From positions 32,001-96,000 of IMG/VR virus record IMGVR_UViG_3300005253_000015: a DNA stretch of 64,000 nucleotides, one strand, 5' to 3'. A program made the translations under genes and the position numbers. Each line of letters starts with the position of its first letter. Position 1 is the stretch's first letter. A model generated the notes under the pieces. The model saw only the letters and a program-made list of their open reading frames with translations. It was not told the origin of the DNA and did no database searches. Source of the DNA: a virus. Positions 34,117-35,549 of this stretch are shown piece after piece.

Positions 34117-34443
34117 CTACCTTCTTATTGTTTTCTCCATCATAGCATTACTACGATTACGGTGTATATTTATAAGTTGTTGCTTTCTTTTATGACTAAA
34201 CTTCTTTATTTTAAGTTCACGTTTATGTGATATATGTCTTGCCTCTTTCTTACCTCTATGCTGAAACTCTTCTAAATATTCCATATAGAGATTTCCATGA
34301 AAACGTTTTGTAAATTTAGCTTGAGACTTTTTATGCTGCATATACCTTCTTTTAGGATTATCTGTCATACCAGTGTAATATATGGAACTTCCATTATTAC
34401 AACATCTTAAGATATAAACATAATGACTATAAATTTTATTCAC
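34117..34443 (-). CDS. GIY-YIG endonuclease
   Basis: HYVYILRC..IYYTGMTDNPKRR..QH..AKFT, RELKIKK. Confidence 0.9.
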   Translation of the reverse strand: MNKIYSHYVYILRCCNNGSSIYYTGMTDNPKRRYMQHKKSQAKFTKRFHGNLYMEYLEEFQHRGKKEARHISHKRELKIKKFSHKRKQQLINIHRNRSNAMMEKTIRR

Positions 34444-34501: not shown

Positions 34502-34690
34502 TTAGTCCACTTCAGTATAAATTGGGTCGAATGTTCTTATAGGTTTTAACTCATCTTTATCTATTATTTGAAGACTGTGATATCTATGCTTACGCTCAAA
34601 TCTTTTTAGTTTCTTATTAGCTACAAAATTATGTGCGTGAATAGGCACATATGTTTTACAATCGAGGCACACACGGACACGAAGGCTCAG
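34502..34690 (-). CDS. 62-aa CxxC/HxxH zinc-finger protein, CTG start
   Basis: GGAGGT SD, (M)SLRVRVCLDCKTYVPIH...FERKHRYH. Confidence 0.7.
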   Translation of the reverse strand: MSLRVRVCLDCKTYVPIHAHNFVANKKLKRFERKHRYHSLQIIDKDELKPIRTFDPIYTEVD

Positions 34691-35304
34691 AATAGATAAC
34701 CTCCCTCTTTTTTTAAATATTCTACTGCTTTAATTAATATTAATGGATTATCATTTGATAAACCTATTACTGAGTTACATTTAGCACATAATAATCCTCT
34801 TACTAATACTTTATTATTATAACTAAAATTATGGTTATGGTCAATGGTAAATTTCCTTCCATTATTATTTGATGTACCACAAATAGCACATCTTTCTTTT
34901 TGTATATTTAATATAGCCTCATAATCTTCTAAAGTCATATTATAATATCTTTTCAAATTAGCTTTTCGTAGATATCCTCTAAATTTATCTTTATTTTCAC
35001 TCCTGATTTCGCCTCTCCGTTTCTTTATTCTCTCTTTATTTTTATGATAATATCTATTATATGTTGATTTTGTCTGCTCCCTATGATGATTAATATATTC
35101 TCTTTCTCTTTTTAGAAATCTTTCTATATTGTTCTTACGATGCTCTTTAAGATATTTATTACGACACTTCTTACAACGTGAAGCGAAACCACCCTTTCTT
35201 GATTTATCACTATGAAAGTATTCTACTGTTAATGGTAGATTTCTGTTACACCCCGTACACAGTCTTGTTTTTATATCATCAATACATACTTTTACTCTTA
35301 TCAT
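34687..35304 (-). CDS. Endonuclease VII-family homing endonuclease
   Basis: YNMTLEDY...Q..RCAICG, IDHNH, VRGLLCAKCN..IG..NDNP..L.KA.EYL. Confidence 0.9.
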   Translation of the reverse strand: MIRVKVCIDDIKTRLCTGCNRNLPLTVEYFHSDKSRKGGFASRCKKCRNKYLKEHRKNNIERFLKREREYINHHREQTKSTYNRYYHKNKERIKKRRGEIRSENKDKFRGYLRKANLKRYYNMTLEDYEAILNIQKERCAICGTSNNNGRKFTIDHNHNFSYNNKVLVRGLLCAKCNSVIGLSNDNPLILIKAVEYLKKEGGYLF

Positions 35305-35549
35305 CTAATCATCTCCCGTGTAATATATTTTATTTTTATATTTTCATCTTTTACCCTCTCTTGCCATGTTACCCAAAGGTTCTTATTTAACCCATATGAT
35401 AGATTTTTTAATTCCACTTCTTTTTCTTTAGTTAAATATACACATTTCTCTCCACATACGTGACAGAGAGTAAAATAAAAATCACTCTTATCTGGAATTG
35501 TTAATGTAAGAAAATCACAATTTGGACATTTTTTCATTATCATTATCAA
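35301..35549 (-). CDS. Zinc-ribbon protein
   Basis: CPNC...CHVC. Confidence 0.65.
   Translation of the reverse strand: MIMIMKKCPNCDFLTLTIPDKSDFYFTLCHVCGEKCVYLTKEKEVELKNLSYGLNKNLWVTWQERVKDENIKIKYITREMIR

Follow-up and report, generated by a model that had tools for sequence, protein, structure and literature searches.

We analysed 64,000 nucleotides (nt) of viral DNA, hereafter the window, corresponding to bases 32001-96000 of the 111,456 bp virus record IMGVR_UViG_3300005253_000015, and identified within it a gene for an Endo VII-type nuclease that lies in frame inside the 5′ end of a small conserved gene. The nuclease open reading frame (ORF; 34687..35304, minus strand, 205 amino acids (aa)) is inserted after codon 9 of the small gene, has captured its start signals and is followed by a recoded nine-codon replacement. 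Composition, homology and gene context suggest, with a probability that we place at roughly 70 %, that an Endo VII-type (His-Me finger) gene, most likely that of a free-standing homing endonuclease, inserted between codons 9 and 10 of the small gene and that this gene was rebuilt behind it. The nuclease ORF starts at 35304 with ATG ATA AGA GTA AAA GTA TGT ATT GAT (MIRVKVCID), which are the native codons 1-9 of the small gene and now codons 1-9 of Endo VII (35278..35304, minus strand), and it stops with the TGA at 34689-34687. Overlapping this stop as CTGA is a CTG (34690-34688) in the frame of the small ORF, which runs one frame over (-1) and reads ATT CTG AGC CTT CGT GTC CGT GTG TGC CTC GAT TGT AAA (I L S L R V R V C L D C K). 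Both starts had been read in this way in a preliminary description of the same DNA, and the sequence is as given there.

The segment encoding the N-terminus of the small protein is present on both sides of the nuclease ORF. We scored the resemblance of the two copies with a position-specific profile over eight columns (x-R-V-R-V-C-x-x), built from 35 homologues of the small protein with the window excluded and applied to all 129,563 stop-free 8-mers in the six frames of the 111-kb genome. LRVRVCLD of the downstream gene ranked first (22.4 bits) and IRVKVCID, residues 2-9 of Endo VII, ranked second (21.6 bits), followed after a gap of about 6 bits by a third 8-mer at 15.6 bits. With ranks 1 and 2 among 129,563 the resemblance of the two copies is not due to chance. 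An explanation by chance would have the small gene start at a GTG at 34672, the Endo VII N-terminus be its own and the GC-rich stretch be non-coding, and the repeat is indeed just nine residues long. That account has to accommodate not only the two top ranks and the 6-bit gap to rank 3 but also, as set out below, Endo VII homologues that are without the segment, an independent blastn alignment of the Endo VII start with the small-gene start of a relative, and a codon-usage outlier that coincides exactly with the repeat; we give it next to no credence.

Two relatives of the virus, L003 and L004, were placed together with it in one marine-sediment metagenome (LAZR01, LCGC14) by protein look-ups. 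Both are syntenic with the window over the flanking genes at 66-87 % nt identity and Endo VII is absent in both. The preliminary description had expected nuclease-free relatives to begin the small gene with the peptide now fused to Endo VII, and their small genes do start with ATG and a matching peptide: ATG TTA AGA GTA AAA GCC TGT CTT GCT TGT in L004 (MLRVKACLAC) and ATG GTA CGA GTC TGT GTA TGT TTT AAA TGT in L003 (MVRVCVCFKC), with a further family member, P0009, starting MIRIKVC. In L004 the start of the small gene overlaps the stop of the preceding gene, an arrangement like that in the window. Aligned by blastn, window positions 35314-35269, containing the Endo VII start, correspond to L004 3634-3679, the small-gene start, with 78 % identity over 46 nt, and the end of the preceding 82-aa gene (its last ~10 nt) together with the start region resembles the equivalent L004 junction. 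The AT-rich copy fused to Endo VII is identical to L004 at 22/27 nt and to L003 at 18/27, against 12/27 and 15/27, respectively, for the recoded downstream copy; the remainder of the small gene is 69 % identical to either relative. The higher match of the AT-rich copy identifies the upstream copy as the native gene start and the downstream copy as the odd one, which supports the earlier proposal that the nuclease is fused in frame to the original 5′ end.

The nuclease itself consists of an N-terminal Cys4 finger and a basic region followed by a C-terminal Endonuclease_7 domain (PF02945), matched at 72.9 bits against a gathering cut-off of 23.6 over residues 116-199 and profile positions 3-82 of 82; the ORF also matches PHROG endonuclease VII families. 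In a scan of the whole genome it scored 75.5 bits and was the single copy. Residues C139, C142, D155, H156, H158, C173, C176 and N177, making up the zinc-binding Cys pairs and the DHxH...CxxCN catalytic core, are invariant across three aligned homologues. Closest to Endo VII are P0003, with 51-52 % identity along the full length, and P0004, with 37-38 %, which begin M-IKKKLCTGC and M-TETKICTKC. Both align from residue 10 of Endo VII, with a nine-residue gap right after the Met and the Cys4 finger in common from residue 16. Within IMG/VR, Endo VII matched only distant relatives of ≤37 % identity, one of which aligns only from residue 12. Conservation of MIRVKVCID among Endo VII homologues from other contexts had been named at the outset as the observation that would speak against a captured start; the segment is not typical of Endo VII homologues, P0003 and P0004 beginning at the position of residue 10, and judging from these alignments it is not part of Endo VII proper. 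The fused N-terminus recurs unchanged in P0002, a fragment of 99 % identity from another assembly. There is no ATG, GTG or TTG within Endo VII codons 2-20, so that the nuclease gene depends on the captured start. Its ATG and the stop of the preceding gene overlap as ATGA, and the ATG is preceded by a GGGAG motif (35313..35317, minus strand, 8 nt 5′ of the captured ATG), read from the sequence as Shine-Dalgarno (SD)-like, which is the original initiation signal of the small gene and now serves Endo VII.

The downstream copy had also been described as atypically GC-rich for this genome, and both its composition and its codons confirm it. The recoded tract (34661-34690, minus strand), delimited by GC content, codon usage and the family profile, has 60 % GC compared to 30.4 % for the virus genome and falls within the top 0.15 % of the genome's 30-nt windows. 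It opens with nine rare codons in a row, CTG AGC CTT CGT GTC CGT GTG TGC CTC, each with a relative synonymous usage of 0.03-0.21, where the native copy is built from the commonest codons; no nine-codon window out of 16,360 in ORFs of at least 150 aa matches the rarity of the recoded copy. Usage is back to 0.80, 0.88 and 0.71 in the next codons, GAT TGT AAA, and rarity and duplication have exactly the same end point. The nuclease gene (27 % GC, ordinary codon usage) and the rest of the small gene after the duplicated codons (31 % GC, ordinary composition) lie directly on either side, and with the anomaly confined to nine codons the tract is not the edge of a larger GC-rich import; a larger GC-rich foreign tract was thus ruled out. 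RNA structure as a cause of the GC-rich tract was likewise ruled out (z = -0.05).

Over codons 2-9 the copies differ at 12/24 nt, yet five residues are identical and the other three conservative (I/L, K/R, I/L). In 200,000 simulations with 12 randomly placed substitutions the observed BLOSUM62 score was never attained, and five identities were retained in 0.04 % of them. The two copies are about as unlike in DNA as a common peptide permits, which speaks for present or recent translation of the downstream copy and also for selection on the nucleotide difference itself.

The small conserved gene (34502..34690, minus strand) comprises 62 codons and a stop if started at the CTG, and it was delineated from a phmmer family and an AlphaFold2 model. 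Its product matched no Pfam or PHROG family, and a word-indexed protein search returned only the protein itself; a search for longer fused forms yielded none, which is weak evidence. An exhaustive phmmer search found 38 proteins at E up to 0.001, of which 35 were aligned; P0011 and P0014 were rejected as family members, as they are long repeat proteins matched spuriously via leucine-rich (LRR) and RING repeats. The 35 aligned homologues are 54-136 aa in length, mostly 58-84 aa, and align over their whole length. Numbering residues from the 65-aa translation that begins at 34699, F34 and H38 are invariant and C11, C14, I20, H41 and E50 nearly so, and the conserved Cys and His residues would fit a small metal-binding protein. 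The N-terminal consensus of the family is M(x)RV[RK]VCxxC; 17 of the 35 homologues begin exactly with M-R-V-[RK]-V-C or M-x-R-V-[RK]-V-C, and several others have an in-frame Met at this position. AlphaFold2 predicted from the family alignment a beta-beta-alpha-beta unit (predicted local distance difference test, pLDDT, 91) whose first strand, residues 7-11 (RVRVC), is encoded in the recoded segment. A fold search with the small protein gave no convincing match (Foldseek E above 2, VIA-align Z ≤3.2). One family member, P0020 (136 aa, on a 503-nt contig), has ~47 N-terminal residues of the small-protein family followed directly by a segment with weak similarity to the Cys finger region at the N-terminus of Endo VII (pairwise E 0.005), and may represent another nuclease gene fused in frame within the small-gene family at another position.

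The small-gene frame offers no ATG, GTG or TTG ahead of the conserved Arg and the first strand. The first such codon is the GTG at 34672, at which ORF callers start (MCLDCK...), and the public gene call P0001 is a 56-aa protein beginning at this internal GTG (window 34502-34672), the product of which is without strand 1 and the conserved Arg. Given the missing canonical start, we consider the truncation of P0001 an annotation artefact. A second SD-like motif read from the sequence, GGGAGG (34700..34705, minus strand), lies within the last Endo VII codons, 6 nt before the ATT (34693), 9 nt before the CTG (34690) and 27 nt from the GTG. Spacing of SD motifs across the genome is broad, mostly 7-13 nt, and both ATT and CTG fall within its range, so that spacing does not separate CUG from AUU as the start; the CUGA overlap is one base change away from the common ATGA arrangement. 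We favour initiation of the small gene at CUG or AUU, which would be aided by coupling to translation of the nuclease.

The absence of a canonical start upstream of the conserved Arg, together with the gene-caller version that begins at the GTG and is without strand 1, could be expected if the small gene were a recent pseudogene inactivated by the insertion, its recoded tract being the relic of an earlier functional state. Such an origin appears distinctly unlikely, since the 62 codons have stayed open in an AT-rich genome with frequent stops and retain the conserved residues (F34, H38, C11, C14, H41 and E50), the GGGAGG is suitably spaced, and the two copies differ almost only at silent or conservative positions. 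Alternatively, a shift of the ribosome into the -1 frame at the Endo VII end might yield a nuclease-small protein fusion with no need of a start codon, as the small ORF does lie in the -1 frame and overlaps the nuclease stop. However, the sequence TAT CTA TTC TGA contains no slippery heptamer, an RNA structure that could stimulate slippage is absent (z = -0.05), and proteins of the family stand alone, with lengths of 54-136 aa, mostly 58-84; with neither slippery site nor structure we regard a frameshift fusion as very improbable.

Under the proposed homing mechanism, the nuclease would be translated from the SD motif, ATG and first nine codons of the small gene, with the ATG coupled to the upstream gene through the ATGA overlap. 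The replacement at the 3′ end of the element would rebuild the small gene as (M)SLRVRVCLD joined to the original codon 10 onward, to be translated from the CUG (34690) or the AUU (34693) behind the GGGAGG and probably coupled to translation of the nuclease. In nuclease-free relatives the nuclease would cut the uninterrupted site, in which native codons 1-9 are joined to codon 10 onward, and repair would then copy the nuclease gene and the replacement tract from the carrier genome, using as homology the upstream gene and native codons 1-9 on the left and codon 10 onward on the right. The small gene is the presumptive cleavage target of the nuclease. The insert splits the presumptive site and the downstream copy is altered at 12/24 nt (codons 2-9); in the carrier the split and recoded site would prevent self-cleavage, and recoding would keep the copies too unlike to recombine as direct repeats and delete the insert.

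A different origin for the same arrangement is that Endo VII is the virus's own junction resolvase, like gp49 of T4, gained by illegitimate recombination, with the duplication as a by-product and the odd copy as a donor allele. PF02945 is named after a resolvase and the genome has a single Endo VII copy. On the other hand the gene is absent from the locus in both syntenic relatives, its product has an N-terminal Cys4 finger and basic region like those of mobile-type nuclease genes, and it sits in a GIY-YIG/HNH cluster. A donor allele would also be an unlikely source of rare codons in exactly the nine duplicated codons beside an AT-rich nuclease. We therefore consider a resident resolvase unlikely, and favour insertion of a homing-type nuclease gene.

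Several points nevertheless weigh against insertion and rebuilding as we describe them. The founder of PF02945, T4 endonuclease VII, is a junction resolvase, and a selfish role for the present nuclease is suggested from context only. Translation starts poorly at CUG and AUU in systems studied so far, and the rebuilt gene is without a canonical start upstream of the conserved strand. The comparison of native and recoded copies is based on two relatives only, each ~55 % identical in the small protein. Finally, the duplicated unit is short, nine codons, and the exact insertion junction cannot be fixed to the base.

A further idea, which we hold to be doubtful, is that the element makes the small gene dependent on it, in that translation of the small gene would need ribosomes that finish the nuclease ORF, with the recoding acting as an immunity and anti-deletion device. 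If this were true, a nonsense or frameshift mutation in the nuclease gene would silence the small gene, and there would be selection for an intact nuclease ORF, breaking the usual decay of fixed homing genes. The extreme recoding would then be a combined immunity and anti-deletion device carried by the element.

The nuclease and the small gene form part of a short minus-strand operon extending from 36144 to 34117, in the order 79-aa, 116-aa and 82-aa genes, 205-aa Endo VII, small ORF and 108-aa GIY-YIG gene. The 82-aa gene immediately upstream of Endo VII (35301..35549, minus strand) matched no family, and it is its TGA stop that overlaps the captured ATG. Directly 3′ of the small gene lies the GIY-YIG nuclease gene (34117..34443, minus strand, 108 aa; PF01541, E 7e-10), and a GIY-YIG gene is found at the equivalent place in both L003 and L004. 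The virus record carries direct terminal repeats. Among deposited phage genomes, blastn and tblastn with the locus and the small protein revealed no close relative of the virus and no useful match; scans of IMG/VR with the small protein, its neighbours, P0006, P0007, P0020 and a 260-aa neighbour found no relatives; and in GTDB genomes neither the small-protein family nor the junction sequence was matched, giving no clue to the host. ARAGORN detected no transfer RNA (tRNA) genes near the locus or in the relatives.

Nuclease genes flank the small gene in all three genomes, namely Endo VII and GIY-YIG in the window, GIY-YIG-T5orf172 in L003, and HNH_3 together with GIY-YIG in L004. Comparison of L003:3998-4218 with L004:3644-3864 showed the last third of the small gene to be 96 % identical (49/51 nt) between the two, visibly identical sequence continuing ~35 nt beyond its stop, whereas over codons 10-45, within the first two-thirds, they are only 62 % identical. 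This pattern points to a recombination boundary inside the small gene of L003 and L004, adjoining different nucleases (GIY-YIG-T5orf172 and HNH_3). Exchange boundaries of this kind occur beside nuclease genes in phages (PMC10448857). In addition, both relatives share a conserved stretch of ~150 nt (L003:3840-3995, L004:3290-3445) that follows the homologue of the 116-aa gene, can be read as a 49-50-aa ORF in each and precedes the next gene; the window is without an equivalent, its 82-aa gene following directly on the 116-aa gene. ARAGORN found no tRNA in this stretch, which could be a regulatory region or a small RNA.

Elsewhere in the window a second nuclease gene, of the HNH_3 type (4226-4912, plus strand), is bordered on both sides by versions of a single gene start (window 4114-4962), of which the dead-end copy is a 17-codon ORF, MKKNKILIIAPLQDIPT-stop (4962-4909, minus strand), and the live start, MNKAKILIISPLQDIPT... 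at 4164, belongs to a peptidase C25-like gene (3523-4164, minus strand). The two copies share 79 % identity across 19 aa, a span that takes in two residues preceding the Met. The case parallels that of Endo VII, but the nuclease is on the opposite strand and unfused. Together they suggest that the insertion of nuclease genes in this virus repeatedly leaves the 5′ end of a gene duplicated. The C-terminal halves of this HNH_3 protein and of the HNH_3 protein beside the small gene in L004 (L004:3902-4765) are very similar (...HHIN..K.DNRIENLFLCKNN...), which suggests that one HNH_3 nuclease lineage may occupy different loci in related viruses.

Mobile nucleases usually spare the host gene by way of self-splicing introns or inteins, by using intergenic sites, or by splitting the gene into two workable halves. 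The Endo VII locus would represent a fourth route, in which the element takes over the translation start of the gene and carries a recoded replacement for the displaced codons, a route previously described at the 3′ ends of genes in fungal mitochondria and yeast. For phages and archaeal viruses a literature search turned up no account of such a layout, although its coverage was incomplete and absence is not proven. The system is compact, with a presumptive recognition site of ~30 bp, a natural and presumably resistant version of it, and nuclease-free relatives in the same sample. It also bears on annotation, since gene callers shorten the small protein by starting it at an internal GTG, and similarly rebuilt genes with non-canonical starts would be missed.

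Free-standing homing endonucleases of T4-like phages are likewise located between or beside conserved genes, and their presence varies among related genomes (mobE, PMC2790892). As proposed for the Endo VII locus, carriers of T4-type elements are presumed to be protected by differences in the target site, and the flanks are co-converted. SegF and SegG are further free-standing homing endonucleases of T4-like phages. The T4-type elements are, however, intergenic, have their own start signals and come with no duplication of the target, whereas here the gene appears to be rebuilt. Where T4-type insertions occur within genes, as in nrdA of Aeh1, they split them into two polypeptides. T4 endonuclease VII (gp49) is a structure-specific resolvase needed for packaging. 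Its catalytic domain is in common with that of the nuclease described here, which unlike gp49 has an additional N-terminal Cys4 finger and basic region and is encoded by an insertion absent from relatives.

Closer parallels come from eukaryotes. The yeast WHO (‘weird HO’) elements beside FBA1 (Coughlan et al. 2020, summarised in PMC7282806) resemble the mechanism proposed for the Endo VII locus in that an unspliced free-standing nuclease homes beside its target, a resistant version replaces the cut end and a fragment of the gene is left across the element. They differ in residing in a eukaryotic nuclear genome, at the 3′ end of FBA1, in encoding an intein-derived LAGLIDADG nuclease with a zinc finger, and in that the nuclease ORF is not fused to the target frame, unlike Endo VII. 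Cleavage and resistance have been shown experimentally for WHO and are proposed for the viral system.

Mobile endonuclease ORFs (mORFs) of fungal mitochondria form ‘gene hybrids’ with atp6 of Allomyces macrogynus and with atp6, atp9, cox2 and nad3 of Glomus (PMC3630166). In these, as in the window, an endonuclease ORF lies in frame in a protein gene accompanied by a duplicate of the displaced gene end, and the native copy is nearer to relatives in its DNA than the inserted copy at a conserved protein sequence, the comparable test here giving 22/27 against 12/27. The mitochondrial mORFs encode LAGLIDADG or GIY-YIG nucleases in an organelle, where the present element encodes an Endo VII-type nuclease in a virus that presumably infects prokaryotes. 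They occupy the 3′ end and supply a C-terminus of foreign origin, the native one being left untranslated or as a tail. In the window it is the 5′ end that is affected, the native N-terminus, SD motif and ATG having become the start of the nuclease and the replacement being without a canonical start; in a further difference from the mitochondrial mORFs, the recoding affects nine codons only, and their usage is extreme. By analogy, the locus can be regarded as a mirror image, at the 5′ end of a gene, of the layout of the mitochondrial mORFs and WHO elements.

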